Shown here: one piece after another, positions 12,353 through 36,187 of the stretch
Layout: the number at the start of each line of letters is the position of its first letter
Position numbering within the stretch: the first letter of the stretch is position 1
From: a virus
Taxonomy: Duplodnaviria; Heunggongvirae; Uroviricota; Caudoviricetes
IMG/VR virus record: IMGVR_UViG_2778261630_000008
Span: 1 to 36,187 of that record
DNA: 36,187 nucleotides
Strand: one strand, 5' to 3'
The notes under the pieces: model-generated
Seen by the model: only the letters and a program-made list of their open reading frames with translations
What the model was told of the DNA's origin: nothing
Database searches by the model: none
Translations under genes and position numbers: made by a program

Positions 12353-13051
12353 TTATTTGTTTCTTCTTTGTTCACGCCTTGTCTTGGCTTCGATAAGGCG
12401 TTGAGGTTCAGTGTAAAGCCGTTCTAAAAAAAGATAGGTAAAATCTTCAAGATCCTCAGCAGCAGCTTTATCCAAAATACCTTCATGCGCTCCATCATTT
12501 CCGTCATCTTTAACGCATTCAGCTAGTTCCCTTAAAGCTTCAGGCAGTAGATGATTATCAAATAACCACTCCATTCTTAACCCTAGGCTTCTCCTTATTT
12601 TTTGCGCAGGCCCTTGCTCCCCATCAGGAAGAAGTCCTTTTGTGGCATAATCAAGGCAAAGCCTAAACATGGTTGCTGCTGCATTATAACAACCTATAGC
12701 CAAACATTTCGCCCCTTCCTCATATGCACTATTGATATGCTCAGGTAAGAACTCTGGTGGCTCCTCTACTGCTAAGTCTGCCGGTGATATAGGCCTAACA
12801 ACCTCTGCAACTTCCTTTAAGCCGAATATTCCACTTTCCCAATTATAGCCATCTAAAGTTTTATTTTTCGTTAAAGGTCTGCAAAGAAACATTGTCGTTT
12901 TATGACACTCTCGGCAAACACAATAGACCTCGTACTCGTATGTTTTACCCCCGCCCAATGCATTGTAAACCCTAGTGCAATTCAGCCCATTAACATCAAA
13001 CGCTATTTTTTGTGATCCACATCGTGGACAGTCATCTACTAACATAACCAT
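12353..13051 (-). CDS. cargo protein, 232 aa: N-terminal 4-Cys zinc ribbon plus helical C-terminal domain (possibly DUF4145-like); function unknown
   Basis: ATG 13051 with GGGAGGAG RBS; CPRC...CVCRECH cysteine pairs; more AT-rich than the phage backbone; inserted between the portal stop and cos. Confidence 0.6.
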   Translation of the reverse strand: MVMLVDDCPRCGSQKIAFDVNGLNCTRVYNALGGGKTYEYEVYCVCRECHKTTMFLCRPLTKNKTLDGYNWESGIFGLKEVAEVVRPISPADLAVEEPPEFLPEHINSAYEEGAKCLAIGCYNAAATMFRLCLDYATKGLLPDGEQGPAQKIRRSLGLRMEWLFDNHLLPEALRELAECVKDDGNDGAHEGILDKAAAEDLEDFTYLFLERLYTEPQRLIEAKTRREQRRNK

Positions 13052-13160
13052 GTCAATTACTCCTCCCTATGAAAAAAATGAGTTGAAAAATTGAATATTC
13101 ACGACTTAAAAAGCTAGCCTATTTAACACCATAATTTCATTAATTCAACCATGAGCGCGC

Positions 13161-13180
13161 GCTCGTATCCCCGCCACGCC
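13161..13180. other. cos site of the prophage (186-type variant)
   Basis: Minus-strand GGCGTGGCGGGGATACGAGC shares the first 13 nt with the 186 cohesive end as I recall it; the flanks align base-for-base with the satellite cos region at 27011..27060. Confidence 0.55.
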
Positions 13181-13225
13181 TGCCCGCTTTATGTAGTGGT
13201 TTTCATGCACCTGCATGATCTACGC

Positions 13226-13250
13226 AAAAGCCCGCCAGAACTGGGCGGGC
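13226..13250 (-). terminator. rho-independent terminator downstream of the 433-aa cargo gene
   Basis: GCCCGCC / GGCGGGC stem (13230..13236 with 13244..13250) followed on the minus strand by TTTT. Confidence 0.5.
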
Positions 13251-13475
13251 CTTAGCAAAAACGATCCTCAAACGATCATGCAATATCATGCACTAAAGAC
13301 ATGCACTAACAAGTGAAACTCCGTATCCAAATGACCACTTGCGAAACATTCGAATTAATAAAGCTAAAGATCTGCAGCGCTCGAGATGCGGTCGTTAGTT
13401 TAAGAAGCTTATTAGTGCATTAGAGTTATGAGATCGTTTGACATAGGGGCTCATAAGTGTTGCTACTTCTTATAT

Positions 13476-14777
13476 TTATTCGGTTAAATTTTTCAATGGC
13501 GCACCTGGAAGATGATGATGAACAAACTTACCTTTATATTCAATATGATAGCAAAGTAACATATAGAACAATGTTAGGCATGAGTTATAATTTTTAACAT
13601 TTTCTTGCCAAGAATGTTCTTTAAAATGTTTTGCGTGCGCAGATCTATTTCTTGCTTTATACCAAGTTGTAGCTAACTCTTCTGGAAAAAATCCTTTTTT
13701 TGCCATATTAAAAAGAGTTCCTTTGACCGAGGATCTTCCACCTTTTTCTAGCAATTGAATAATCGAAGATTTAACTCTCTCGTTTATTTCAAGGTTTTCT
13801 ATCACAGGCTTAGACTCACAACATAAACTGGAAAACTCAACATCTTCTATTTTAAAAGTAGAGTAAAATTTATTTATTACACCTTCAATTGAAACAGTTA
13901 GACTGAGAGTTTCATTTTCTAAATCAGATTGATGAGCATTAAATATCTTTCTCCAATAATAGTAAAAGGTTTTATCAGTCTCGAATTTTTTAATGTATGC
14001 TTGCGAAAATTGCACCCATTCATTTAGATAATATGGAGCTCTTTGAGGAATAAAAGTCATCAGCCTCTGTTTTTCTTTATTATCAATATGCTTAAATATC
14101 AATAACCTACTGTCATTCCCTTGCCACAACACTAAAGCAGGATTGAGTAGAACCCCAGATGCAACGGACAATGAATCTAGAATACTTTTAGCATATAAAT
14201 AAGAAAAATCATCATCAGAATCAAGACAAATCCTAGTGTATTTATCCTCTAAAAGAATGCTAACATTTATATTATTCAACGAAAATACGGATCTCGTCCT
14301 ACGCTTCCCTTCCTCACCTAAGTCTTGAAATTCATTACAAGGGATATTAATTTTTTGCGGGATGAAAAATATTACTTTATGTTTTTTAAAATCCCCATCT
14401 ATTTTTCTTTTTATTTCATAAAGCTCACAATCAATGCTTACCCCTTGTTGTGAAGCATTGATATTTACATATGGGTCAACATCTTTTGCTTGCCATAAAT
14501 ACCCATTCAAATCAATCGCATTCATAGAAAAAAGATATTCACTACCGATGATTTCTCCATAATCAAGATGATTATATGTTGGGCATGTGCTAAATTGAGC
14601 ATCAGTTTCTTTATGTAAGAACTTTAGATGAATTTTATTATTTTTATAATAAAAAAATCCAGAACCTGTAAACATTTTTGGATTTTCATTAGTTTGTTGT
14701 GTGAGAGTCACCTCAATTAATTCATGAGTAAATGAACCAGCCAATAGTTCTTCAATTTTTTCTTTAACAATGTTCAC
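13476..14777 (-). CDS. cargo protein, 433 aa, strongly AT-rich; C-terminal HEPN-like R-N-x3-H motif; candidate anti-phage / abortive-infection effector
   Basis: GTG 14777 with AAGGAAGGA RBS; motif WYKARNRSAHAKHF near the C-terminus; sits at the cos-to-gene-A accessory locus (old/tin position of P2); composition contrasts with the backbone. Confidence 0.7.
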   Translation of the reverse strand: MNIVKEKIEELLAGSFTHELIEVTLTQQTNENPKMFTGSGFFYYKNNKIHLKFLHKETDAQFSTCPTYNHLDYGEIIGSEYLFSMNAIDLNGYLWQAKDVDPYVNINASQQGVSIDCELYEIKRKIDGDFKKHKVIFFIPQKINIPCNEFQDLGEEGKRRTRSVFSLNNINVSILLEDKYTRICLDSDDDFSYLYAKSILDSLSVASGVLLNPALVLWQGNDSRLLIFKHIDNKEKQRLMTFIPQRAPYYLNEWVQFSQAYIKKFETDKTFYYYWRKIFNAHQSDLENETLSLTVSIEGVINKFYSTFKIEDVEFSSLCCESKPVIENLEINERVKSSIIQLLEKGGRSSVKGTLFNMAKKGFFPEELATTWYKARNRSAHAKHFKEHSWQENVKNYNSCLTLFYMLLCYHIEYKGKFVHHHLPGAPLKNLTE

Positions 14778-21712: not shown

Positions 21713-22753
21713 ATGACCATCAGAAAACAGCCGAACGGAAAATGGTTGTGTGAGTGCTATCCCAATGGACGCAATGGTAAGCGCGTGCGTAAGCAATTTG
21801 CTACCAAAGGCGAAGCCATTGCGTTTGAAAGCTTCACAATGGAAGAAGTGAACAAAAAACCATGGCTAGGGGAAAAGGAAGATCGGCGACATCTATCAGA
21901 ATTAATTGAGCTGTGGTATTCCCTGTATGGTCAAACACTCGCAGACCCCAAGCGCCTCATGGCGAAACTTAGAATTATCTGTAATGGTCTAGGCGATCCC
22001 ATCGCCTCAGAACTGACAGCTGGTGAGTTTACGAAATACCGCGAAGCACGGTTAAAAGGTGAAGTACGAAATGAAGATGGCACGCTTATGTCGCCAGTTA
22101 AGCCCCGCACGGTAAATCTTGAACAGCGCAACCTATCATCTGTTTTTGGTACACTGAAAAAGCTGGGCCACTGGTCAGCCCCCAACCCGCTTGCTGGGCT
22201 GCCAACATTTAAAATTGCTGAGGGTGAATTGGCGTTCCTGACCCCGGAAGAAATTAAACGTCTGCTGGATGCCTGTGCTGATTCTCAAAGCCCCAGTCTG
22301 CTGATGATTGCAAAAATATGCTTGGCCACCGGCGCACGCTGGAGCGAAGCCGAAAACCTACAGAGTCATCAGGTATCAAAATACCGTATCACTTATACCA
22401 AGACTAAAGGAAAGAAAAACCGAACAGTGCCTATTTCAAAGGATTTATATGAAGAACTGCCTAAGAATAGGGGAAAATTATTTACACCTTGTAGGAAAGC
22501 TTTTGAACGTGCGGTAAAACGAGCTGGTATCGAGCTACCAGAAGGGCAATGCACACACGTATTACGACATACATTTGCAAGTCACTTTATGATGAATGGC
22601 GGAAACATACTGGTGCTGCGCGATATTCTGGGCCATGTCGATATAAAAATGACAATGATTTACGCCCACTTCGCTCCCGACCATCTGGAAGATGCTGTAA
22701 CCAAAAATCCTCTTGCTAACCTTGGATGGAGAAAATTAGAAAGTGCTTGTTAA
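21713..22753 (+). CDS. int: tyrosine integrase
   Basis: 346 aa with C-terminal R...H.LRHT...Y catalytic region; 4 bp after cI stop. Confidence 0.9.
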   Translation: MTIRKQPNGKWLCECYPNGRNGKRVRKQFATKGEAIAFESFTMEEVNKKPWLGEKEDRRHLSELIELWYSLYGQTLADPKRLMAKLRIICNGLGDPIASELTAGEFTKYREARLKGEVRNEDGTLMSPVKPRTVNLEQRNLSSVFGTLKKLGHWSAPNPLAGLPTFKIAEGELAFLTPEEIKRLLDACADSQSPSLLMIAKICLATGARWSEAENLQSHQVSKYRITYTKTKGKKNRTVPISKDLYEELPKNRGKLFTPCRKAFERAVKRAGIELPEGQCTHVLRHTFASHFMMNGGNILVLRDILGHVDIKMTMIYAHFAPDHLEDAVTKNPLANLGWRKLESAC

Positions 22754-22859
22754 TAACTATATCCAACAATACCCATGGATATCGTACTTACTTATCATAA
22801 TATATTTTATATATATATGCCTTGAATTATATCTATGCGTATCAAAAAAAGGCTTTAAC

Positions 22860-23789
22860 ATGGATGAAAGGCCATTAACAAGTCAATACTTATTTAAACA
22901 ATCACTTAGGATTCCTGTATTTTCAGCGATATACTTTGGTATATTTTCCTGGCTTGGACATTCCCCTCAATTTGATAGTGAGGGCTTTAATAATTTCATT
23001 GCAATTAGCAAGCTTCCTATCGCCTTACTTTCTTTGTCCATACCATTTGTTGCTGTCGTAGCAAACATACACCGCACAGTTCAAACAAACCGACAAATTG
23101 AGGAAACCAAGCAAAAGAATCTATCTGATAGCTACTATAGCCATCTAAAGTTCGTTACTGATTATTTCACCAATTTACCTAACAAAACCATTAAACGCGA
23201 ACGTCATTATGGTACTAAAGAGATAAGTTATAAAATTAACTACCCAATACATCTATATAGATATATTTTCATAAATAGCTCACCAGAGAAGGGACGGCCT
23301 AAAAATACAGATAAAGAATACATACGTGAAGTAAATAATCACTGGGTTGATATACTAAAAAACCTAGAGAAGATACTTTCATCTAATCGTGGCTCTCAGT
23401 TTGACGAAGTTTTAATCCGTCAAATGCAATCTCTTCATTCAATAGAAAAACACTTATCCGAACTTAATCGAATGCTTTGCCTAACTCCCATGGAGTTAAA
23501 TGAACATGCAACTTTATACTTTGATGGATATGAAATGATTACTAACTTCATGTCCAGCATTGAACTTGGCGATACAATTGAAACCTACTTCAAATTTACC
23601 ATTGATATTCTTGATATTACCGATAATTTCCTTTCATTCAAGGATGATGGCTCGTCTGGGCAAATCATTATACTAGCAAGATTACTGAAAGATAATAATC
23701 CAGCTATCTTTGATGAAATTGTAACAAACAAAGGGAAGGCTCAACCTTCGTTGACCTACAATGGCGACAGATTGGCGACAGAACATTAA
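22860..23789 (+). CDS. cargo protein, 309 aa, AT-rich, two N-terminal TM helices; function unknown
   Basis: ATG 22860 after an AT-rich promoter-like stretch (TATATATATA); hydrophobic segments IPVFSAIYFGIFSWLG and IAISKLPIALLSLSIPFVAVVANI; lies between int and the att core. Confidence 0.6.
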   Translation: MDERPLTSQYLFKQSLRIPVFSAIYFGIFSWLGHSPQFDSEGFNNFIAISKLPIALLSLSIPFVAVVANIHRTVQTNRQIEETKQKNLSDSYYSHLKFVTDYFTNLPNKTIKRERHYGTKEISYKINYPIHLYRYIFINSSPEKGRPKNTDKEYIREVNNHWVDILKNLEKILSSNRGSQFDEVLIRQMQSLHSIEKHLSELNRMLCLTPMELNEHATLYFDGYEMITNFMSSIELGDTIETYFKFTIDILDITDNFLSFKDDGSSGQIIILARLLKDNNPAIFDEIVTNKGKAQPSLTYNGDRLATEH

Positions 23790-23874: not shown

Positions 23875-23919
23875 ATGTAGGAATTTCGGACGCGGGTTCA
23901 ACTCCCGCCAGCTCCACCA
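23875..23919 (+). other. ssrA: tmRNA (ssrA) 3'-terminal 45-nt segment = attachment-site core shared by the prophage and the satellite
   Basis: ATGTAGGAATTTCGGACGCGGGTTCAACTCCCGCCAGCTCCACCA matches the E. coli tmRNA 3' end as I recall it; sequence upstream diverges, so this is not a full tmRNA gene. Confidence 0.8.
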
Positions 23920-23952
23920 CTTGCTCTTCCGGATACGTCCGGAGAAATCCTG

Positions 23953-23988
23953 AAAGCCCACATGGAACAAGCCTTGTGGGCTTTTTTG
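23953..23988 (+). terminator. rho-independent terminator (ssrA-type)
   Basis: GCCCACA / TGTGGGC stem followed by TTTTTT (23982..23987). Confidence 0.65.
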
Positions 23989-24030
23989 TGTCCTCAGTTG
24001 TCCGAGAATATCCCGCTAAATCCAGTGATT

Positions 24031-24083
24031 ATTGGTATACGTTTAGGTATACGGTAAGATGTATACCTAAAAGCGTATACCAA
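24031..24083. repeat. integrase arm-type repeats (GGTATAC-containing, direct and inverted)
   Basis: ATTGGTATACGTTTAGGTATACGG then inverted GATGTATACCT and CGTATACCAA; a near-identical direct copy lies at 34434..34460. Confidence 0.4.
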
Positions 24084-24103
24084 TTCATAAAGGAGCGGCC
24101 AAA

Positions 24104-25297
24104 GTGGCAAGAACGACACGCCCCCTGACCAACACAGAAGTGCTGCGCGCAAAAGCGTTAGAAAAGGATCTTACATTGCATGATGGCGATGGTCTTTTTC
24201 TTCTCGTTAAAACGAACGGTAAGAAGTTATGGCGTTTCCGTTATCAACGTCCGACAACAAAGCAGCGGACAATGATGGGGCTAGGTGCCTTCCCAGCCAT
24301 ATCGCTTGCAGATGCCAGGAGATTAAAAGCTGATTATCTTTCATTATTAGCCAATGGAATTGATCCGCAAATTCAAGCGAAAGTGGCAGAGGAACAGCAA
24401 CAAATCGCGCTTGACAGTATTTTTTCAACAGTCGCCGCTAACTGGTTTCTGCTCAAAAGCAAAAGCGTTACCCCTGATTACGCAAAAGACATTTGGCGTT
24501 CACTTGAGAAAGACGTATTCCCCACTATCGGTGAGATCCCCGTTCAGAAGATCAAAGCCCGAACATTAATTGAAGCTCTTGAGTCCGTCAAAGCTCGAGG
24601 GGCGCTAGAGACCGTTCGTCGACTGGTGCAACGCATTAACGAGATAATGATTTATGCGGTTAACACCGGTTTGATTGATGCAAATCCAGCATCAGGTGTT
24701 GGTATGGCATTTGAGAAACCTAAAAAGAAAAATATGCCAACACTACGCCCAGAGGAATTGCCTAATCTGATGCATTCATTAACAATGTCAAATCTATCTG
24801 TCTCTACTCGATGTCTCATTGAATGGCAACTCCTAACTCTTGTCCGCCCTTCTGAAGCTTCAGGCACTCAATGGGCTGAGATCGATTTAGATGCGAAACT
24901 CTGGATAATTCCAGCTGAAAGAATGAAAGCAAAACGAGAACACATTGTTCCTTTGTCCCCCCAAGCTTTAGACATTTTGAATATAATGAAACCCATCAGT
25001 GCTCATCGTACACATGTTTTTCCTAGCAGGAGTGACCCCTTAAAACCAATGAATAGCCAAACGGCAAATGCCGCATTAAAGCGAATTGGCTTCGCTGGCA
25101 AACTAGTAGCCCATGGTCTACGTTCTATTGCAAGCACCGCCTTAAACGAACGTGGTTACAATCCTGATGTTATAGAAGCAGCTCTTGCTCATAGCGATAA
25201 AAACGAAGTACGTCGCGCTTATAATCGCTCGGTTTATTTAGAAAAACGTAAGCAACTAATGAATGATTGGGGGCAAATTGTGCACCCCCAATCATAA
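24104..25297 (+). CDS. int: P4-family tyrosine integrase (IntA-like)
   Basis: 397 aa, GTG start with AAGGAG RBS; strong resemblance to CP4-57 IntA / P4 Int as recalled; ~185 bp downstream of the ssrA core. Confidence 0.9.
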   Translation: MARTTRPLTNTEVLRAKALEKDLTLHDGDGLFLLVKTNGKKLWRFRYQRPTTKQRTMMGLGAFPAISLADARRLKADYLSLLANGIDPQIQAKVAEEQQQIALDSIFSTVAANWFLLKSKSVTPDYAKDIWRSLEKDVFPTIGEIPVQKIKARTLIEALESVKARGALETVRRLVQRINEIMIYAVNTGLIDANPASGVGMAFEKPKKKNMPTLRPEELPNLMHSLTMSNLSVSTRCLIEWQLLTLVRPSEASGTQWAEIDLDAKLWIIPAERMKAKREHIVPLSPQALDILNIMKPISAHRTHVFPSRSDPLKPMNSQTANAALKRIGFAGKLVAHGLRSIASTALNERGYNPDVIEAALAHSDKNEVRRAYNRSVYLEKRKQLMNDWGQIVHPQS

Positions 25298-25346
25298 AAA
25301 ACGATTTCAGTCCAAGCAACTATTAAAATTCAATAGATTGGGGACT

Positions 25347-26931
25347 TTATGTAGATTTAACATCAAGATGTTCTCCACAGTATCCGATAATTATTTTACG
25401 TTTACTTCTATCAACCCAAAAGTGGATTCTTATAGTTTCAGACTTGGAGCGGGCTGTTCCTATACCAACGTGTTGGAACATCTTTATTTTTTGACCATTA
25501 TAGTCAAACTCTCTCATTTTAGATAATGTAGCAGATCGCTCTACCGTCTCTGATTCATTTGCTGAATAAGCATCACCAAGAATATCTTTGGCCTTATTAT
25601 CTCCATTTTCAAGATACTCAAGAAGATATTCTGTACAAAGTTTATATAATAAATAAATCAATCTATGATTGTGTTTGAATTTCGATGAGTTCCTCGCTGA
25701 AGAAAATGCTGATTTAAGAATCTCAACATTATTAGGGATTAGGATTTCTAATAAACTCAAAACGGACTCAGGGTTTAACCTATTGCTAATTAAAGATATT
25801 ATCTTTTCAACATCAACATCACCATCAGTAGCTTTTCCATGGTATTTCCTAATATCGTATTTTAACCTTTCTAAGTCTACTTCTATTTTATTTTTTTCAA
25901 AGACAACTGCATCATGCTTTGCATCCAATTCCTCAATCCTTTTTAAATAATCAAGCTCTAATTCTTCACTAGCAGCCTTAAACTCCTCAAACTCTAAGAG
26001 GACTTCATCGAGCAAAGCTTCATACTGAGCACCATCTTTTAACTCATTTAATCTCTGCCTAAAAGAAATATTATCATCACGCTGTCTTTTGGCACGAACA
26101 TTAGCTGGTGATAAATGCAACTTTTTATTATAGCCATTAAAAGCATGCGTTATTACTGATAATATATAATTATTAATAGGAACATTACCCGCTTTAATTT
26201 CATCAACTTGCTTCGGGAGAAAAAGTTTTGTTCCTATATACCCTGACTTATTCATTGGGTAAATAATATTTATTGCCCCCCCCCCAAGATGAATAGTGTC
26301 TTCCAAGTAATCGTTCCATTTCCCAAGAGTCCATTTTACCACTTGTTGCAACAACCTGAGCAAGCCCAATAAGTTGCTCCTGTAGTTTTTCAGGTATAAC
26401 AGGAAATCCATCATTACCTTCACTAATAAAAACTAGCGGGTAGGTCCTGTCATCCCTAGAAATTTCATGCATAAGATACTGAAAGTCGCCATACTGACTT
26501 TTAATATAATCCACTTTCTGGCCGATAACATCCAGATCGAATACACAATTCCGTTTCAAATATGATACCAGAGATGGACGAGTAGCAATTGGTTTTGCAT
26601 CAACCATAGTGCTAACATCACTTATTTCTAACAATATAGATATAAACGTGCTTCCTTTTTCACGTCTAATTCCAATTTCTGTAATCCATTGTCTACCGCT
26701 CACATTCCTATCAGGATGAGTGTACATTATGGAATATATTTTAGGTTCCATTCTATCAGCCGTGTAGGTTCTAACATAGGCTCGCTCTAAATTCCAATCA
26801 CGCCGCGAAAGTAGCTCATCTGTTGATAGGCGAATATTAGCAACCCTATTAAGCCAACCACACACAGAACGCACTACGCTAAAAAAACTATCTTCACCGA
26901 TGCAATTAAACGAATTAACATAAACTAACAC
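25347..26931 (-). CDS. satellite hotspot gene, ~528 aa if read through a G10 tract; as written split into 227-aa and 358-aa overlapping frames; function unknown
   Basis: GTG 26931 with AAAGGAGA RBS; frame A (26931..26248) and frame B (26423..25347) overlap by 176 bp with the homopolymer inside the overlap; loss of one G fuses them; AT-rich; between int and cos. Confidence 0.55.
26276..26285. repeat. homopolymeric tract, C10 on plus strand (G10 on coding strand)
   Basis: Ten consecutive C at 26276..26285, at the junction of the two frames of the hotspot gene. Confidence 0.95.
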
Positions 26932-27019
26932 TACAATCTCCTTTCACTCATTTAAAGGGGAGGCTGAAAAGGAGTTATCTTATATACTTTTTGTAAATTA
27001 TTTCAATCTTTTGCGCGCA

Positions 27020-27038
27020 GTGCTTTCCCCGCCTCGCC
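27020..27038. other. cos site of the satellite (P2/P4 type)
   Basis: GTGCTTTCCCCGCCTCGCC is the reverse complement of GGCGAGGCGGGGAAAGCAC, the 19-nt P2/P4 cohesive end as I recall it. Confidence 0.8.
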
Positions 27039-27140
27039 CGCCCGCTTTGCGGGGCGGTTTTAATGCAGTTTCACTGACACGCTCAGGCCGCGCCGGGAAT
27101 GGCGCGGTCTGCAGAAAATGAGGCAGGAAAACGCATGCAA

Positions 27141-27172
27141 AGCCATGCACCTTATCGATGCATGGCTTTTTT
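27141..27172. terminator. stem-loop terminator between cos and psu
   Basis: AGCCATGCA / TGCATGGCT 9-bp stem with T-run on the plus side and A-run on the other; could terminate the sid-delta-psu transcript. Confidence 0.45.
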
Positions 27173-27202
27173 CAGTAAAAACAGGCGGATTTTCGGGGAA
27201 TT

Positions 27203-27775
27203 TTACACAGACTGACGTGATGCCAGTTGCGCACTTTTACGCGAAAAAATCATGTTCTGCGCAGGGGTGAATTTTTCACGGCTGTCATCCACCGAAGCCG
27301 CGTCAGGCCTGAATCCGATGGCCGTTAAAATGTCGCTATCCTGTGCGGAATAATTAATTTTTTCCCCCTTCGCAAGCCAGGACAGAAGGGCTTCACGCAG
27401 GGCATCTGTGGTACGCTGTATGGCACAGTTTCGGGCAATGGCCGTCAGCTCACTGTAGCCCATCAGCTCCGGTGCCAGTGCCGCCGCCAGTGCTGTACCG
27501 TGCTGCTGCATAAAATCATTCAGCCGGTCGCGGATGCTGATGTGCTGAACGGCTTCATGCGAACGAATATAACGACCGGCGGCCTGATTCACCTGCCATT
27601 TTCTGACTTCGATAATATTGCGTAATTCGTCCAGGCGGCTGACGTTTCTGCCTTCTCCTGACAGAAGCCGCAGATATTCCTGTTCGGCCGCTGCCAGCTC
27701 ATTTTTGCGTTGCAGCCATGCTGCTTTGTTATTCTGACAGGTGTCAAAGGCCTGCTGTAAGGCTGTGCTTTCCAT
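27203..27775 (-). CDS. psu: polarity suppression protein Psu (capsid decoration / Rho antagonist)
   Basis: 190 aa, the P4 Psu length; last gene of the sid-delta-psu operon next to cos. Confidence 0.9.
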   Translation of the reverse strand: MESTALQQAFDTCQNNKAAWLQRKNELAAAEQEYLRLLSGEGRNVSRLDELRNIIEVRKWQVNQAAGRYIRSHEAVQHISIRDRLNDFMQQHGTALAAALAPELMGYSELTAIARNCAIQRTTDALREALLSWLAKGEKINYSAQDSDILTAIGFRPDAASVDDSREKFTPAQNMIFSRKSAQLASRQSV

Positions 27776-27848
27776 CGTTATCTCTTTCTCATCATGCTGA
27801 AGAATAAAAATACGGTGTGCGGCGACGGCCGGGGTTAACCGGCAGCCC

Positions 27849-28349
27849 TCATTCCAGACGCAGCGAATATGATTGTGTTTTTAACCGTACTGGCGGCAGT
27901 TCCTGTTTTTCATGCAGGCGTTCTGCCAGTTCGTCCGGCGTGACCGGGCGGACAATGAAGCGGTTGATGGTCTGAAGCGTTTTAAACACCAGACCACAGC
28001 CCGGATCCGTGCACACATAAAAACGCTCGGTGACTTCCTGAGACAGACGCCGCGATGTTCTTGACAGTGCAAGGCCTTTACATCTCCGACAACAATATCC
28101 GGTAACAAGCATTCTTTTCGGGCGTTTCATACTGCCGGAGGCCGACGTCAGTGAATCGAGGTATCTCTGTTTGCCTGAAATGTATTCCATTCCTGAATCT
28201 TTACAGTCAGAGAAAAAGCTTTCACTCGCTTCAAATGTCGCAGAGCAATAAATATTCCGGCACTGTGCAATCATTATCTTGGTGCCATCGTCCATGAAAT
28301 GTGCGCGACGGGTGTGAGCAACATGTCCACACGACGGGCAGTAAATCAT
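27849..28349 (-). CDS. delta: Delta late-gene transactivator (duplicated Ogr-type zinc finger)
   Basis: 166 aa with two CxxC...CxxC units (CPSCGH... and CCRRCKG...); start overlaps sid stop. Confidence 0.9.
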   Translation of the reverse strand: MIYCPSCGHVAHTRRAHFMDDGTKIMIAQCRNIYCSATFEASESFFSDCKDSGMEYISGKQRYLDSLTSASGSMKRPKRMLVTGYCCRRCKGLALSRTSRRLSQEVTERFYVCTDPGCGLVFKTLQTINRFIVRPVTPDELAERLHEKQELPPVRLKTQSYSLRLE

Positions 28350-29080
28350 GACAGCAGTCCTCTGGCCTTAAGCTCTGCTCCCTGCTGGTCTATTTTGTCC
28401 TGCCACACCTTGCGCTGTGCCGGTGTGCCTGCCACCTCATAATCCATGTGCGGGAGTGTTGCCGCTGACAGTCCGGTCAGCCGGAGAACCGGCTCGCCGG
28501 TGAGGCTGATTTGCATCTGTTTTATTTTCTGTTCCAGCGATGATTTCACCTGCTGCATGACAGCTTTATCGGGTGCGACGTAGCCCTGATGGCCGGTGGT
28601 GTTGGCGAGCGGATTTTCCTGTACCAGGATGCTCAGATGCATTGCCCGGACAAGCGCCTCACAGGTTTCATTCAGGGCGTGTTCCAGCTCATTCTCTGCA
28701 TACAGACTCAGAAGGTGATGATGTGCCTTCCGGTAGGCGGTGGCCGTGCTGTCACACGCCCCTTTCAGGCGTTCACGTTCAAAATTCAGCACCACGGCCA
28801 GATTGTCATATTCCTGTACCAGCTCCCGGCGTGCCACGCGCTCAATGTGGCGCTGTTTCAGCTCGTCGCTCAGGACACCTCCGGCTGCACGAAAGGCCGT
28901 GCGCCAGTCGTCAGCGTCGTTTCCGTCGGCCTGCGCCAGCGCATTTTTTTCCTGCTCTGCCCGTTCAATAGCCGTGACGGTCTCATCCATCAGGCGGGCG
29001 TTCTCAAGATGAGCGACTCTGGCCTTTTCCAGTTGTGCCAGCGCGGGTTGCAGATATTCAGGGATGGTGTTGTCAGACAT
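28346..29080 (-). CDS. sid: Sid external scaffold (capsid size determination)
   Basis: ORF-track start 29098 is GTG; ATG 29080 with GAGGAG RBS gives 244 aa, the P4 Sid length. Confidence 0.85.
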   Translation of the reverse strand: MSDNTIPEYLQPALAQLEKARVAHLENARLMDETVTAIERAEQEKNALAQADGNDADDWRTAFRAAGGVLSDELKQRHIERVARRELVQEYDNLAVVLNFERERLKGACDSTATAYRKAHHHLLSLYAENELEHALNETCEALVRAMHLSILVQENPLANTTGHQGYVAPDKAVMQQVKSSLEQKIKQMQISLTGEPVLRLTGLSAATLPHMDYEVAGTPAQRKVWQDKIDQQGAELKARGLLS

Positions 29081-29114
29081 TTTCCGGCTCCTCGTCACTT
29101 CAGGTTAAGAAAAT

Positions 29115-29132
29115 TGTGACGTACACCGGACA
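29115..29132. promoter_or_regulatory. TGT-N12-ACA activator site upstream of sid (Psid-type late promoter)
   Basis: TGT 29115..29117, 12 nt, ACA 29130..29132, just upstream of the sid start. Confidence 0.5.
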
Positions 29133-29249
29133 ACAACACGACGCATTGCAGATGTGCCAGCCCTGACACAGGAGACTCATCCTCAGACCGGCAAGCCAGG
29201 AAAAGGTCGCAGGAAAAACCGGCTTACTGTTTGTTTTTTTATATTTTAC

Positions 29250-29363
29250 TGTTCACCTCTGTTCACCATAAGAAAAAAGATAAGTAATACAGTAAGTTAA
29301 ATGGTGAACAATCGCAGTAATGACTGTTCACCGTCTGTTCACCACTGTTCACCACTGTTCACC
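29250..29363. repeat. iteron cluster (TGTTCACC octamers), ori-like
   Basis: Six direct TGTTCACC copies (29250, 29260, 29325, 29336, 29346, 29356) plus one inverted GGTGAACA (29303); this octamer is the alpha-protein binding repeat of P4 ori/crr as I recall it. Confidence 0.7.
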
Positions 29364-29521
29364 CGTTGATGGGCTTTTTGTGCTGTTTATTACTTTTTAT
29401 TTTTATTAATTCACTGAAATAAATAAGAAAAAACAATTTGTATTTCACTATAATTTTTTCCAGCCCCTTCCAGAGCGTTTTAAAGCTATCTGGCGCTGAT
29501 GTGCAAAAAATACACAGCCAT

Positions 29522-29539
29522 TGTAAGACAGCCTGAACA
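29522..29539. promoter_or_regulatory. TGT-N12-ACA activator site upstream of vis (PLL-type promoter)
   Basis: TGT 29522..29524, 12 nt, ACA 29537..29539; ~110 bp upstream of the vis start. Confidence 0.45.
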
Positions 29540-29641
29540 AATCCCCCCTGTTGCGTCTGCTGAAAATATTCACAAAATAAAGCGCTACCCGAAGCCGGAC
29601 GGACTTATCCGGTGCTGTATGGACATTAACGAGGTAGCCCG

Positions 29642-29908
29642 ATGCAAGCTGTTTTTTCTTCCCCGTCTCCCGCTCCTGTAACGCCACTGATTCCGCTGCC
29701 GGACATCACGCAGGAGCGTTTTTTACGTCTGCCGGAAGTGATGCACCTGTGCGGCCTGTCACGCTCGACCATCTATGAACTCATCCGTAAGGGGGAATTT
29801 CCGCCGCAGGTGAGTCTTGGCGGTAAAAATGTGGCCTGGCTGCACTCTGAAGTCACTGCATGGATGGCCGGGCGCATTGCCGGACGCAAACGGGGGTACG
29901 ACGCATGA
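29642..29908 (+). CDS. vis: Vis / AlpA-family excisionase-type regulator
   Basis: 88 aa, the P4 Vis (orf88) length; AlpA-like HTH ([29 protein letters not shown]); GAGG RBS. Confidence 0.8.
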
Positions 29909-30036
29909 TGATGCCTGTTCTGCAAAAACTCCCTTTTTCTGGCTTGCCTTTTTCCGGCATTTGCGGATATAGTTTTTCCGCTGCCGCAAAATCGGCAGCC
30001 GGGCGTGAGAACCCGTGTAACTCGAAGGCGACATAT

Positions 30037-30058
30037 GACGCGCCATGCGTCTTTTTTT
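30037..30058 (+). terminator. short hairpin with T7 tract (candidate attenuator/terminator in the vis-to-orf66 gap)
   Basis: GACGC / GCGTC 5-bp stem (30037..30051) followed by TTTTTTT (30052..30058); weak stem. Confidence 0.35.
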
Positions 30059-30297
30059 GTGTCGCAATCAACGCCACAGAGCGCCAGATTATGGTGTGGC
30101 GTGTGGTTTGCCGTGCAGGTATGATCCTGTTCGCAATCACATGTTATGCCACTGAGTCAATGGTAGCTCAGGCGGGGCAGCCTCCGGGCTGGCCGGTATT
30201 CTTCGAGGCCGGTATTCTCACCCCCGTCTGGGCTATCGCCATCGAGCGTGAGAACTCCGGCGATAGCAGTTATTTGCTACTCGAAGGAGGCTGCCTT

Positions 30298-30495
30298 ATG
30301 GCTACAACCCTTACCCCCTCACACCCTGAATTTGTCTTTGTGTTTGCCGCTGTCCGTCGCGCAGACCGTCATCCCCGTATCTGCATGCTTCGCACCGTCG
30401 CCGGTGATGAACGCAGTGCCCGCCGTTCCCTTGTCCGTGACTATGTGCTCTCCCTTGCTGCCCGTCTGCCGGTGATGGGGGTGTCCCGTGCGTAA
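30298..30495 (+). CDS. small left-operon protein, 66 aa (kil position of P4?)
   Basis: ATG 30298 preceded by GAAGGAGG; the longer upstream extension of this frame looks non-coding and low-complexity. Confidence 0.4.
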
Positions 30496-30775
30496 TAAAA
30501 AAGCCCCTCAGACCGTCTCAGCGCGTCATGACGCCCGTGAACACCTCAGCATTGAGGCTTACCATAAGCTCAACCGCGCCAGCGCCGTATCCCAGTTTGT
30601 TGGGGGTGATTTGATTCACCGTGAACTCTCCGGCCTGCATCAGCTCTACATTCCGCATATTTTCAGCTACCTGAATGAGGATATTGATTTTGTGCTGAAT
30701 GAGCTGAAAGCCAAAGGCCTGTGCCGTGATTTTCTCGCCCAGCAGAAAGACCGGGGAGACAGGACGCATGTTTGA
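30488..30775 (+). CDS. small left-operon protein, 95 aa (epsilon position of P4?)
   Basis: GTG start overlapping the previous stop; size and order relative to orf151/cnr/alpha match my recollection of P4 epsilon; no sequence-level confirmation. Confidence 0.4.
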
Positions 30776-31223
30776 TTTTCCCCAGCCCGGTGAGATTTAC
30801 CGTTCTGCCGGTTTTCCCGATGTGGCCGTGGTCGGCATTCTGGAAGACGGTATTCCGTGGGAAATGCCGTACCGCTGCCCGGACATTGTCTGGAACCCGT
30901 ACCGCCGTAAATTCAGTATCCTTGTGCGTATCCTCGCTGACGGACGCACCACAGACATCCCGCTGGGGCGTTTTCTGCGGGAATTTACCTGTGACCGTCC
31001 TGACCTGTTTAAACGCAGCCCCGTAAACCGGCATGCGGTACTGAAAGAAATGGCCGGAGACCCGGAATTACAGAAATGGCGGGAGAAATATCTGGATATT
31101 TACCCGCAGGCCCCTGTTCCGGTCAGCCGGGCGGCACCGGTGGCGCGGGAATGGCGGGAAATTCCCCGCACGGAGTCTGACCCGGAAATCACCCCGGATA
31201 ACAGTTACCGCAATTATCTGTAA
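30768..31223 (+). CDS. left-operon protein, 151 aa (P4 orf151-like)
   Basis: ATG 30768 ([12 protein letters not shown]...) with GGAG upstream; length and position equal P4 orf151 as recalled. Confidence 0.55.
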   Translation: MFDFPQPGEIYRSAGFPDVAVVGILEDGIPWEMPYRCPDIVWNPYRRKFSILVRILADGRTTDIPLGRFLREFTCDRPDLFKRSPVNRHAVLKEMAGDPELQKWREKYLDIYPQAPVPVSRAAPVAREWREIPRTESDPEITPDNSYRNYL

Positions 31224-31358
31224 TTAAAAAACGACACCCGAAAAATTAAATGTGCGTATTCGCGCAGGGATACGCACGTCTTCAGGAGACGCAGATATGC
31301 CTTATCAGTTAATGCAACCGGCACGGAATGCAGTCATCTGTCACAGGGAGGAAAACAA

Positions 31359-31679
31359 ATGAAAACACCCTTACCGCCCGTCTTACGCGCTGCCCTTTAC
31401 CGTCGCGCTGTCGCCTGTGCCTGGCTGACCGTGTGCGAACGTCAGCACCGCTACCCGCATCTCACCCTTGAGTCACTGGAGGCGGCCATCGCCGCTGAGC
31501 TGGAAGGCTTTTATCTGCGCCAGCACGGTGAGGAAAAAGGGCGTCAGATAGCCTGTGCCCTGCTGGAAGATTTAATGGAATCCGGCCCCCTGAAGGCCGC
31601 GCCGTCGCTGTCCTTTCTCGGGCTGGTTGTGATGGATGAACTCTGTGCCCGTCACATAAAAGCGCCGGTACTGCACTGA
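31359..31679 (+). CDS. left-operon protein, 106 aa (P4 Cnr/orf106-like)
   Basis: ATG with GGGAGGAAAA RBS; 106 aa immediately upstream of alpha. Confidence 0.55.
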
Positions 31680-31693
31680 AGGAGAACAACACC

Positions 31694-34027
31694 ATGAAAA
31701 TGAACGTAACCGCCACCGTCAGCCATGCGCTCGGCCACTGGCCGCGTATTCTCCCGGCGCTGGGGATTCAGGTGCTGAAAAACCGTCATCAGCCCTGTCC
31801 GGTCTGTGGCGGGAGTGACCGCTTCCGTTTTGATGACAGGGAGGGGCGCGGCACCTGGTACTGCAATCAGTGTGGTGCCGGTGACGGCCTGAAACTGGTT
31901 GAAAAGGTGTTTGGTGTTTCCCCGTCCGACGCGGCCGCAAAGGTGGCTGCCGTGACCGGCAGCCTGCCCCCGGCTGACCCGGCAGTGACGACCGCCGCCG
32001 GTGCTGAAACAGACGCTGCCCGGAAGAACGCCGCCGCACTGGCACAAACCCTGATGGCGAAAACCCGTCCCGGAACCGGTAACGCCTACCTGACCCGCAA
32101 GGGCTTTCCCGGCCGGGAATGCCGGATGCTGACCGGCACACACAGAGCCGGTGGCGTGAGCTGGCGCGCCGGTGACCTTGTGGTGCCACTGTATGACGAC
32201 AGCGGCGAACTGGTTAACCTTCAGTTAATCAGCGCTAACGGCCGTAAGCGCACCCTGAAAGGCGGACAGGTCAGGGGCACCTGTCACACCCTTGAAGGAC
32301 AGAATCAGGCCGGAAAACGTCTGTGGATAGCGGAGGGATACGCGACCGCACTTACCGTGCATCACCTGACCGGTGAAACGGTGATGGTGGCGCTTTCTTC
32401 CGTGAACCTCCTTTCTCTGGCCAGCCTTGCCCGGCAGAAGCATCCGGCCTGTCATATTGTCCTTGCTGCTGACCGTGACCTCAGCGGTGACGGCCAGACA
32501 AAAGCCGCCGCAGCCGCAGATGCGTGTGAAGGTGTTGTTGCCCTGCCGCCGGTCTTCGGTGACTGGAATGATGCCTTCACGCAGTACGGCGGGGAAGCCA
32601 CCCGTAAGGCCATTTATGATGCCATCCGGCCACCGGCTGAAAGCCCGTTCGACACCATGAGCGAAGCGGAGTTTTCCGCCATGAGTACCAGCGAAAAGGC
32701 CATGCGTATCTATGAGCATTACGGCGAGGCGCTCGCGGTCGATGCCAACGGCCAGCTTCTGTCCCGCTATGAAAATGGTGTCTGGAAGGTGCTGCCGCCA
32801 CAGGACTTTGCCCGGGATGTGGCCGGGCTGTTTCAGCGTCTGCGCGCGCCGTTCTCCTCCGGGAAGGTGGCCTCCGTGGTGGACACCCTGAAGCTGATTA
32901 TTCCGCAGCAGGAAGCCCCCTCCCGCCGCCTGATTGGCTTTCGTAACGGCGTGCTCGACACGCAGAGCGGCACGTTCCACCCGCACAGTCCGTCACACTG
33001 GATGCGCACCCTGTGCGATGTGGATTTCACCCCGCCGGTGGAAGGGGAAACGCTGGAAACCCACGCCCCCGCGTTCTGGCGCTGGCTTGACCGTGCCGCC
33101 GGTGGTCGTGCGGAAAAACGCGACGTGATTCTGGCCGCACTGTTTATGGTGCTGGCAAACCGCTACGACTGGCAGCTCTTTCTGGAGGTGACCGGCCCCG
33201 GCGGCAGCGGCAAAAGTATCATGGCCGAAATAGCCACCCTGCTGGCCGGTGAGGATAACGCCACGTCGGCCACCATCGAGACGCTGGAATCCCCGCGTGA
33301 ACGTGCCGCGTTAACTGGCTTCTCACTGATACGCCTGCCGGACCAGGAAAAATGGAGCGGCGACGGTGCCGGACTCAAGGCCATCACCGGCGGCGATGCG
33401 GTGTCCGTTGACCCGAAATACCGGGATGCATACTCCACGCATATCCCGGCGGTAATTCTGGCCGTGAACAATAACCCGATGCGCTTCACCGACCGCAGCG
33501 GCGGCGTGTCACGCCGGCGGGTGATTATTCACTTCCCGGAACAGATAGCCCCGCAGGAGCGCGACCCGCAGCTTAAGGACAAAATCACCCGCGAGCTGGC
33601 GGTCATCGTGCGTCACCTGATGCAGAAGTTCAGCGACCCGATGCTCGCCCGGTCACTGCTTCAGTCCCAGCAGAACTCAGACGAGGCGCTGAACATCAAA
33701 CGGGATGCCGACCCGACGTTTGATTTTATCGGCTATCTGGAAACCCTGCCGCAGACCAGCGGCATGTATATGGGGAACGCCAGTATCATCCCGCGCAATT
33801 ACCGTAAATACCTCTATCACGCCTATCTGGCCTACATGGAGGCAAACGGCTACCGGAATGTACTCAGTCTGAAAATGTTCGGGCTGGGGCTGCCGGTGAT
33901 GCTGAAGGAATACGGACTGAATTACGAGAAGCGCCATACCAAACAGGGGATACAGACCAACCTGACGCTGAAAGAGGAAAGCTACGGCGACTGGCTGCCA
34001 AAATGTGACGACCCTGCAACAACCTGA
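31694..34027 (+). CDS. alpha: alpha primase-helicase (zinc-binding N-terminus, primase, SF3-type helicase, iteron-binding C-terminus)
   Basis: 777 aa, the P4 alpha length; CPVCGG...CNQCG zinc motif at the N-terminus, Walker A GPGGSGKS mid-protein; GGAGAA RBS. Confidence 0.95.
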   Translation: MKMNVTATVSHALGHWPRILPALGIQVLKNRHQPCPVCGGSDRFRFDDREGRGTWYCNQCGAGDGLKLVEKVFGVSPSDAAAKVAAVTGSLPPADPAVTTAAGAETDAARKNAAALAQTLMAKTRPGTGNAYLTRKGFPGRECRMLTGTHRAGGVSWRAGDLVVPLYDDSGELVNLQLISANGRKRTLKGGQVRGTCHTLEGQNQAGKRLWIAEGYATALTVHHLTGETVMVALSSVNLLSLASLARQKHPACHIVLAADRDLSGDGQTKAAAAADACEGVVALPPVFGDWNDAFTQYGGEATRKAIYDAIRPPAESPFDTMSEAEFSAMSTSEKAMRIYEHYGEALAVDANGQLLSRYENGVWKVLPPQDFARDVAGLFQRLRAPFSSGKVASVVDTLKLIIPQQEAPSRRLIGFRNGVLDTQSGTFHPHSPSHWMRTLCDVDFTPPVEGETLETHAPAFWRWLDRAAGGRAEKRDVILAALFMVLANRYDWQLFLEVTGPGGSGKSIMAEIATLLAGEDNATSATIETLESPRERAALTGFSLIRLPDQEKWSGDGAGLKAITGGDAVSVDPKYRDAYSTHIPAVILAVNNNPMRFTDRSGGVSRRRVIIHFPEQIAPQERDPQLKDKITRELAVIVRHLMQKFSDPMLARSLLQSQQNSDEALNIKRDADPTFDFIGYLETLPQTSGMYMGNASIIPRNYRKYLYHAYLAYMEANGYRNVLSLKMFGLGLPVMLKEYGLNYEKRHTKQGIQTNLTLKEESYGDWLPKCDDPATT

Positions 34028-34034
34028 CCCACCT

Positions 34035-34059
34035 GACCGGCATCTGCCGGTCTTTTTTT
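34035..34059 (+). terminator. rho-independent terminator of the alpha operon
   Basis: GACCGGC / GCCGGTC stem with ATCT loop followed by TTTTTTT (34053..34059), 8 bp after the alpha stop. Confidence 0.7.
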
Positions 34060-34074
34060 ATCCCTGAATTCCCC

Positions 34075-34375
34075 GAAGGTGAACAATCCACTGTTCACCC
34101 TTCACCGTATATTCACCCGTTATCACACTGAAATTAAAAGAGAAAAATGAAAGGTGAACAGTGTGAACAATCAAATCAAAAAAAACTTTTTTCTCCCTGT
34201 GTGATTTCAGTGCGGGGGATTAATCACCGGTATGAGTCACACCGGCAGAATGCCGGAGGTGAAGAATCGAATGTTCACCCTTCACCCATTATTAACCACC
34301 TATCACTCTGAAATAAAAGGAGAAAATCAAAGGGTGAACAGTGTGAACAGTTCTTTCGAAAAAAAATTTTTTTCC
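34075..34375. repeat. crr-like region: two ~120-bp direct repeats, each carrying GGTGAACA/TGTTCACC octamers
   Basis: Unit 1 ~34075..34195 and unit 2 ~34255..34375, period 180 bp, near-identical; about 4.9 kb from the other iteron cluster, matching the P4 ori/crr arrangement as recalled. Confidence 0.75.
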
Positions 34376-34433
34376 TGTACGATATAGCATCAATCCAAGT
34401 AAAAATGCGCTTTCATTTCACATTAACTTACAG

Positions 34434-34460
34434 CCATTGGTATACGATTAGGTATACGCA
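34434..34460. repeat. arm-type repeat copy at the satellite right end
   Basis: CATTGGTATACGATTAGGTATACGCAC, direct copy of 24031..24053. Confidence 0.4.
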
Positions 34461-34511
34461 CAAAAACTGAATTAAACAAAATCGTTAAAAATCAAAGCAA
34501 TATAATATTTA

Positions 34512-34531
34512 TTCAAACTCCGCCAGCCTCA
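34512..34531. other. degenerate copy of the ssrA 3' core (candidate attR of the satellite)
   Basis: TTCAAACTCCGCCAGCCTCA versus TTCAACTCCCGCCAGCTCCA in the 23875..23919 core; roughly 19 of 23 positions match when two indels are allowed; arm-type repeat ~50 bp to its left. Confidence 0.35.
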
Positions 34532-34654
34532 TGATTGGACGGTGTAAGGACTACACCAACAAAAACAGGAAGTTATAAGTCTCAGCAGGACACCGACCAG
34601 ACGGTGAGGAGACAAAAAAGGATACGCAACGGAGTCGCGACTCCCTATGACATT

Positions 34655-34680
34655 AAAGCCCGCTGATGCGGGCTTTTTTA
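34655..34680. terminator. bidirectional-looking terminator in host intergenic DNA
   Basis: AAAGCCCGC-TGAT-GCGGGCTTTTTT hairpin. Confidence 0.5.
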
Positions 34681-35110
34681 TTGGTCCTGACCCGCCCTGA
34701 ATAGAATTCATCCAATTACAGTCCAGACATATACAGTATCCCTCAGCTCAGTATCAGCTTCTCGACAAATGGTCACTGTTATTTACCCGTTGCCAGAAAG
34801 AGAATAATTTGCTCCCATAGCCAGCCTTCCCGGAATCTGTATATTCATTAATATTGTTATCGATTCCATCAAGTAACATAGGTTGGATGCGATTGATCTT
34901 ACTCACATTAGTCGACACGGAACTCAGTAAGTTGAACTCTGAAAAAGCAGTTTAAATAGCATTTAAACAAATGCCACCAGTTCGAAAAAGAGTATAAGCA
35001 CACTTAATATATTGTTTTAATTATTCATTTCCTTTCAACCCAATTCTTATCCCTCACATTATTTGTTATTAATTTGTTGTTTTTGATCACAATAAGAAAA
35101 CAATATGTAA

Positions 35111-36187
<1,077 letters not shown>

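Follow-up and report, generated by a model that had tools for sequence, protein, structure and literature searches.

When an integrated element ends in an imperfect copy of its target gene, is the imperfection a sign of decay or the element's own sequence? This question is raised by positions 34434-34531 of the DNA analyzed here, an IMG/VR virus record of 36,187 nucleotides that we call the window throughout, and in which a P4-like satellite reaches its right end. A first-pass annotation of the window had read this segment as the right boundary of the satellite, marked by an arm-type repeat and a decayed att core, and had suggested that the satellite may be old or partly immobilized. According to our analysis, a P4-like satellite of ~10.6 kb is very likely integrated at the 3' terminus of ssrA, the tmRNA gene, has its right attachment site (attR) at 34434-34531 and operates by the mechanism set out below. 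The boundary, the architecture of the repeats, the series of junction alleles and the intact genes, all of which support this reading, were observed directly. From left to right, the segment holds two 12-bp arm-type sites, a 52-bp spacer, TTCAAACT, the core CCGCCAGC and the remains of the displaced ssrA end. As such, this right attachment site is an ordinary feature of a P4-like satellite at a tmRNA gene.

Host DNA resumes directly to the right of the satellite core

The right end of the satellite was placed by comparison with island-free genomes. In E. coli ATCC 25922 and TUM13881, both island-free, the order is smpB, ssrA, the flank seen in the window and then glaH (the glutarate dioxygenase gene), and ssrA, ending in CCACCA, is joined straight to ATCATGATTGG. 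Alignment of this empty site (...GTTCAACTCCCGCCAGCTCCACCA|ATCATGATTGGACGG) with the window (...AATATTTATTCAAACTCCGCCAGCC|TCATGATTGGACGG) shows that host DNA resumes at 34529, which confirms the place of the boundary given in the first-pass annotation. The right end of the satellite can thus be given to the nucleotide: sequence is satellite-specific to 34519, the core shared with ssrA occupies 34520-34527 and host DNA runs from 34529. Alignment with an intact junction identifies the single C between them, at 34528 (+ strand), as the remainder of the displaced host end TCCACCA.

The DNA at 34529-34682 (+ strand) is native host sequence from downstream of ssrA, with which it is contiguous in island-free strains. 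This trailer includes the original ssrA terminator (34655-34676) and is kept in genomes where ypjA, not glaH, comes next. In the window glaH starts at 35210, and related genomes are annotated with the same glaH flank. That ~150 bp past the junction are host DNA matters for annotating the variable region between ssrA and glaH.

Megablast found the satellite region in 116 complete E. coli genomes, and in several of them homology continues to window position 34678. Taken at face value, this could mean that the satellite itself reaches ~34678 and that the ssrA-like sequence at 34512-34528 is internal to it, as the matches H2-H8 follow the window unbroken from 23875 to 34678 and have unrelated DNA (ypjA) beyond. 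We consider this extended satellite most improbable, since 34529-34682 stands directly after ssrA in the island-free ATCC 25922 and TUM13881 and closes with a terminator that fits the native one of ssrA. Furthermore, a query spanning 34400-35250 is covered to at least 80% in ~1100 genomes and, among the matches listed, the alignments start at 34512-34531. The ypjA-to-ygaQ block represents a distinct indel at a position further to the right. A satellite boundary at 34678, where the megablast homology stops, was ruled out by the empty-site alignment.

A P2/186-like prophage and the satellite lie in tandem at ssrA

Positions 1 to ~23874 of the window are a P2/186-like prophage, recognized by its GPA replication protein, gpP-type terminase and 186-type CI repressor, with its integrase gene at 21713-22753. 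The prophage lies directly to the left of the P4-like satellite and both occupy the ssrA site, so that it is a potential helper for the adjoining satellite. A similar prophage-satellite junction was found at query coverage of at least 80% in 29 of 5426 complete E. coli genomes, these loci being known by coverage alone. In tandem arrays at tRNA and tmRNA genes (Williams 2003, cited in PMC10107115; Islander, PMC4383910), elements stand in series with a gene fragment at each junction. The arrangement in the window is the same in kind, and it pairs a P2/186-like potential helper with a P4-like satellite.

The two elements meet at 23875-23919 (+ strand), which, as alignment with ssrA of ATCC 25922 showed, matches the final 45 nt of the E. 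coli gene exactly, with CCGCCAGC at 23905-23912 and TCCACCA at 23913-23919. This fragment doubles as the displaced fragment (attR) of the prophage and the left attachment site of the satellite, and homology with genomes that have ssrA plus the satellite begins at 23875. ARAGORN found no complete tmRNA gene in the window; the ssrA-like core is therefore a fragment only, and the live gene lies beyond the left window end.

The satellite core supplies an identical 3' end for the tmRNA gene, which is thereby restored at attL: intact ssrA is followed by satellite sequence in strains PapRG-06-5 (L001), HCM-26C-1 (L002) and MCJCHV-1 (L127) and in the loci L125 and L126. Just past the ssrA end, the satellite carries a terminator hairpin (23953-23989, + strand; terminator-like site at 23969-23983), and the same hairpin sequence directly follows the intact ssrA in L001 and L002. 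Where the P2-like prophage is absent, the satellite hairpin stands in for the native ssrA terminator. In MCJCHV-1 (L127 784-792), the 9 nt after the CCA of ssrA at the left attachment site read AATCATGAT, which resembles the host trailer, compared to CTTGCTCTT in the other copies; because of this patch, the repeat flanking the MCJCHV-1 copy is ~23 bp rather than 15.

Two regions of the P2-like prophage hold genes of uncertain role. A 348-aa ORF (22743-23789, + strand) with no Pfam match overlaps the end of the P2-like integrase gene by 11 nt and sits between that gene and the right att fragment of the prophage, an unusual gene position; it may be cargo. On the minus strand, 12353-14777 contains two ORFs between the portal/terminase genes and gene A, one of 433 aa with no Pfam match and the other of 232 aa with DUF4145. 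P2-like phages often have accessory or defence genes between portal/terminase and gene A.

Arm-type repeats flank the core on both sides

The motif GGTATACG occurs five times in the window, at 24034 (+), 24046 (+), 24074 (-), 34439 (+) and 34451 (+), compared to 0.39 copies expected; none of 100 shuffled sequences reached five. Because GTATAC is palindromic, the strand of each copy is defined by its outer bases only. Positions 24031-24053 and 34436-34458 agree at 22 of 23 positions, and each consists of two tandem 12-bp units. The 24-bp copy of the upstream arm repeat reported by the first-pass annotation at 34434-34460 is therefore correct to within 2 nt, the units at 34436-34459 repeating 24031-24054.

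The left set, the P' arm (24031-24084, + strand), contains the two tandem units ATTGGTATACGT and TTAGGTATACGG followed by two inverted copies, one at 24060-24067 matching 7 of 8 positions and one exact at 24074-24081. The P' arm ends 20 bp ahead of the integrase start codon, and its exact copies are conserved in six related satellites. By analogy with other integrase systems, its units are presumed to be arm-type binding sites of the integrase. The P' arm probably overlaps the int promoter; in P4, the P' arm sites overlap the int promoter.

The right set, the P arm (34436-34459, + strand), was delimited by repeat search and alignments and comprises the tandem units ATTGGTATACGA and TTAGGTATACGC. 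It is identical in the window, in L001, L125, L126 and L127, in L006 (an IMG/VR prophage region) and in strain YZ22MPE54 (L124), and both of its GGTATACG copies are also present in L002 and L046. These units are likewise presumed, on the model of related integrases, to be the arm-type binding sites of the right attachment site.

Just ahead of the arm repeats, GTTGTCCG and AAATCC were noticed by eye both in P4 (L128, 3966-3995) and in the window (24000-24030). These sequences, common to the P' arms of P4 and the satellite, could be binding sites for the excisionase Vis; the Vis proteins are 98% identical although the integrases are only 36% identical.

The right core combines satellite sequence with a shortened ssrA end

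An ssrA-like sequence, TTCAAACTCCGCCAGCC, was found at 34512-34528, 52 bp to the right of the arm units, in agreement with the degenerate ssrA-core-like sequence that had been noted ~50 bp from the arm repeat. The earlier reading of a perfect 45-mer as the left core also stands, given the exact match of 23875-23919 to the ssrA 3' end. Its count of several mismatches and indels in the right core holds only in part: the changes to the left of CCGCCAGC are the satellite's own, whereas to the right of CCGCCAGC 7 nt have indeed been lost.

In a gapped alignment with ssrA, ATTCAAACT shows one extra A and lacks one C. Comparison of copies showed that TTCAAACT (34512-34519, + strand) belongs to the satellite itself and imperfectly mimics the T-loop region of ssrA. 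The sequence to the left of CCGCCAGC is identical in seven copies, namely the window, L001, L006, L124, L125, L126 and L127. Two of these, L006 and L127, keep an undamaged junction with the same satellite side, and TTCAAACT is also the same in the tandem array L046. Since ATTCAAACT is present in copies with a pristine junction (L127 and L006), it is the attP sequence of the satellite, not a product of decay. The island-side half of an att core can be misread as decay, and caution is needed on this point.

The 8-mer CCGCCAGC (34520-34527, + strand) is the only exact sequence common to the left and right attachment sites in the window, and it is the putative crossover (overlap) region. In the reconstructed satellite attP, exact identity with ssrA is a 15-bp block, CCGCCAGCTCCACCA. 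To the right of the shared 8-mer, the junction in the window reads CCGCCAGC-C-TCATG, compared to CCGCCAGC-TCCACCA-ATCATG when intact; TCCAC and then AA are missing, which bears out the earlier claim of sequence loss at this junction and sets it at a net 7 nt. T357, the base that adjoins the shared 8-bp core on its right, is the first one lost, so the displaced ssrA 3' fragment at the satellite attR is without U357.

Junction deletions form a series that starts at T357

Junctions were typed in 5426 complete E. coli genomes with 40-mer queries in which the satellite side is joined to the native trailer. The intact junction was found in 60 genomes, the 1-nt deletion in 47, the 4-nt deletion in 58, the 5-nt deletion in 46 and the 7-nt deletion, the allele of the window, in a single one; these counts refer to genomes, many of them clonal, and not to independent events. 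Together, the typed alleles explain 212 of the 228 genomes in which the satellite arm is joined to the trailer. Among the satellite copies that we compared, every deletion starts at the T after CCGCCAGC; L125 has lost 1 nt, L126 has lost 4 nt, L001 lacks 5 nt, and the longest gap, of 7 nt, is shared by L124 and the window. The 7-nt allele is the most eroded one encountered.

Intact junctions were seen in different settings. L006 reads TATTCAAACT-CCGCCAGC-TCCACCA-ATCATGATTGG, that is, the satellite side, the full ssrA end and the native trailer. MCJCHV-1 (L127), whose integrase is 88% identical to that of the window, has the intact junction TATTCAAACT-CCGCCAGC-TCCACCA-ATCATG. In L046, the same satellite side and ssrA end lead into a second island that brings its own terminator and an integrase of 409 aa, forming a tandem array.

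YZ22MPE54 (L124), the sole genome with the 7-nt allele among the 5426, differs from the window in integrase, cargo and right flank. The 7-nt allele occurs on two trailer haplotypes (window 34528-34560 versus L124) and next to different satellite variants, with glaH on the right flank in the window and ypjA in L124. Either recurrent deletion or recombination within the 150-bp trailer would account for this.

The 5-nt deletion is also present at an unrelated small island in E. coli W224N. This island of ~4 kb at ssrA (L004, 1-2521) differs in its integrase and has three genes, including a STAS-like one, and its right end carries a longer ssrA-like block (GGACTCGGGTTCAACTCCCGCCAGC) yet the same 5-nt lesion.

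The same lesion forms have been reported where islands with a P4-type integrase occupy ssrA in E. coli, Salmonella, Yersinia, Vibrio and Shewanella, where they appear as CGCCAGC-CCACCA, CGCCAGC-----CA and CCCCAGC----CCA (Onodera et al. 2022, PMC10107115, Table 1); that study credits many of its listed islands to Williams 2003. Deletions of 1, 4 or 5 nt anchored at T357 are thus already published for such islands, and the 7 nt missing in the window belong to the same series. The allele counts for one satellite family are a modest addition that leaves current understanding unchanged.

The satellite has a P4-like gene backbone and attachment-site geometry

The integrase gene (24104-25297, + strand) encodes a 397-aa tyrosine recombinase with an N-terminal arm-DNA-binding domain; Pfam detected Arm-DNA-bind_3 (2e-22), Phage_int_M and Phage_integrase, and the protein is 100% identical to WP_047657977 of L001. 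Hence a P4-type tyrosine integrase with an arm-DNA-binding domain is encoded next to the att site. An 88-aa Vis/AlpA-family excisionase and regulator (Pfam Phage_AlpA) is encoded at 29642-29908 (+ strand), and the alpha primase-helicase, with Pfam primase-helicase domains, at 31694-34027. Pfam also finds Psu and Ogr_Delta in the satellite, and Sid and epsilon are assigned from gene position and the RefSeq annotation of L001 and L002 alone. Rfam matches to c4-a1b1, isrK and C4 antisense RNA at 29967-30243 (+ strand) mark the immunity region, which, judged by gene order, corresponds to the cI RNA locus of P4. The last replication element before the att arm is a crr-like region (34073-34372, + strand) with two 120-bp direct repeats (34073-34192 and 34253-34372) at 180-bp spacing. 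The satellite thus has the complete P4-like backbone of psu, delta, sid, vis, epsilon, alpha primase, cI-type RNA and crr/ori repeats.

Between int and psu, a satellite cargo gene is split into two overlapping ORFs (25347-26931, - strand), neither of which has a Pfam match. The tract at ~26276-26285 holds 10 C in the window versus 9 C in PapRG-06-5 (L001), where there is a single 527-aa gene; in HCM-26C-1 (L002) the tract length equals that of the window. The C10 tract could reflect a frameshift, phase variation or a homopolymer sequencing error.

The satellite shares with P4 both the gene order and the backbone of psu, delta, sid, alpha, ori and cI-RNA. Its Vis is 98% identical to the annotated P4 excisionase (the ORF88 product), whereas the two integrases share only 36% identity over 402 aa (E 5e-81). 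The annotated attP of P4 (NC_001609) consists of crr with 2 x 120 bp at 180-bp spacing, two 12-bp arm repeats, 53 bp and a 20-bp core ending in CCA; beyond the core come 112 bp, another pair of arm repeats and, at the start codon of int, an inverted copy. The order in the satellite is the same, its first spacer measuring 52 bp when counted to TTCAAACT or 55 bp when counted to the equivalent 20-nt block, and its second 111 bp; the core is therefore flanked left and right by repeated arm sequences at distances like those in P4 (52-55 and 111 bp versus 53 and 112 bp). This comparison rests on annotated coordinates and spacing, as P4 attP and the reconstructed attP of the satellite aligned too poorly in a global alignment.

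The two elements differ in their target, leuX for P4 and ssrA for the satellite, in the length of exact target identity (20 bp versus the 15 bp of CCGCCAGCTCCACCA) and in the arm motif (GGGGGCAT versus GGTATACG). In CP4-57 of E. coli K-12 and in the second island of L046, whose integrase is 49% identical to that of the satellite, the arm motif is GGGACC. Across these elements, the arm motif varies with the integrase while the geometry remains constant.

A counterpart at the same target site is CP4-57 (IntA/AlpA; L129), whose attR reads AATTCAGACT-CCGCCAGC-(T missing)-CCACCAATCATG, with an island-side core nearly identical to that of the satellite. Like the satellite, CP4-57 and CP4So are islands at ssrA with a P4-type integrase, an AlpA-family excisionase and an ssrA end lesioned from T357. 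CP4-57, however, is a cryptic prophage of 22 kb, whereas the satellite is complete and P4-like; the arm motif of CP4-57 is GGGACCAA instead of GGTATACG, and its lesion spans 1 nt instead of 7.

Lesioned right ends and the mobility of the satellite

Excision of CP4-57 leaves ssrA without T357, upon which tmRNA is inactive and ribosome rescue switches to ArfA (PMC10107115), and an equivalent event, the excision of CP4So, was confirmed by sequencing (Zeng et al. 2016, PMC5148205). The CP4-57 products keep the wild-type T-loop and gain the T357 deletion, which places the exchange inside CCGCCAGC for that island. We found ssrA without T357 joined to the trailer in the laboratory strain DTU-1. In addition, the wild isolate WB61 (L132, NZ_CP020025.1 3383466-3383833) has no island at ssrA, and its ssrA is 5 nt short and annotated with 359 nt. 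Judging from its sequence, the WB61 gene looks like a natural excision scar, with an inactive tmRNA predicted. These products show that a damaged right end remains able to recombine, at least in the case of the 1-nt and 5-nt alleles.

Free forms of the satellite were sought with the pattern CAAACTCCGCCAGCTCCACCA, the sequence expected for the satellite side joined to an undamaged ssrA end. This exact-pattern scan gave no attP form in IMG/VR, metagenome contigs or GTDB genomes; nearly all of its 118 matches belong to an unrelated Clostridium-like gene or to chance, and the relevant ones are L006 (intact attR) and L046 (tandem array). The reconstructed 353-nt attP gave partial matches only, none of them contiguous, in phage records. 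Mobility of the satellite family is suggested by its occurrence in different contexts rather than by a direct junction.

One could argue from these data that the right att site has decayed so far that the satellite is old and incapable of excision. The allele of the window is the most eroded of its series, at a net 7 nt and in 1 of 5426 complete genomes; all host-side bases flanking the core are changed, an attP form was absent from the searches of IMG/VR, the metagenome collection and phage records, and a satellite cargo gene is frameshifted in its C10 tract. The 7-nt allele alters core-adjacent bases more than the alleles known to excise, and it could be recombination-defective. Nevertheless, we hold such terminal decay to be rather unlikely. 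The 8-bp shared core, both sets of arms, int and vis are intact, the mismatches to the left of the core are native satellite sequence, islands with a 1-nt deletion excise experimentally (PMC10107115, PMC5148205) and a natural scar with a 5-nt deletion exists in WB61. As T357-deleted islands such as CP4-57 excise, the 7-nt deletion alone does not establish immobilization, and the suggestion that the satellite is partly immobilized is unsupported.

A related issue is whether the deletions are neutral. They might be made by the integrase, if it cleaves or rejoins incorrectly where the overlap ends on the right, or be selected as an addiction-like lock acting via tmRNA inactivation. Four alleles share one starting point, the T that adjoins the 8-bp core, in a setting where the flanking 300 bp show only scattered substitutions; ~72% of the typed junctions in the satellite family are lesioned; the 7-nt allele is found on two different trailer haplotypes (window and L124); and the same series recurs in Salmonella, Yersinia, Vibrio and Shewanella (PMC10107115, Table 1). 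On the other hand, the 4-, 5- and 7-nt deletions may represent stepwise erosion in one lineage, spread by homologous recombination, and the same lesions are seen at islands with other types of integrase (W224N; PMC10107115, Table 1), as would fit an inherited, old host-side allele. Survivorship alone, with excisable copies being lost, would also enrich for lesioned copies. We therefore regard an integrase-made or selected origin as doubtful; if it were true, gaining a P2-like helper at the same site would free the satellite from the penalty.

Proposed excision mechanism and its consequence in the window

We return to the reading of 34434-34531 as the attR of a P4-like satellite. By analogy with P4-type systems, the N-terminal domain of the integrase would bind the arm repeats on both sides, Vis/AlpA would direct excision, and strand exchange would take place inside CCGCCAGC, so that integrase binding, the exact crossover point and excision competence are the predicted elements of this explanation. 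DNA to the right of the crossover would remain chromosomal after excision. The predicted junction of the attP circle is ...TATTCAAACT-CCGCCAGC-TCCACCA-CTTGCTCTTCC..., and the predicted chromosomal scar is ...GGGTTCAACTC-CCGCCAGC-C-TCATGATTGG....

Since DNA to the right of the crossover would stay behind, excision would join the damaged 3' end to whichever copy of ssrA is on the left. In the window, the left recombination partner is not a live ssrA gene, it is the 45-nt fragment behind the P2/186-like prophage, and the prophage supplies a working ssrA 3' end further left, outside the window. With a dead fragment as its left partner, excision of the satellite alone should spare tmRNA and cost the cell nothing. 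A tmRNA switch of the CP4-57 kind is probably uncoupled in this genome, as the P2-like prophage separates the satellite from the live ssrA. The junction thus belongs to a lesion series with a known consequence, tmRNA inactivation on excision, which the neighbouring P2-like prophage would buffer here. The satellite with a lesioned junction is also found without the P2-like prophage, in PapRG-06-5 (L001), and the simplest order of events is therefore that the satellite arrived first and the prophage later.
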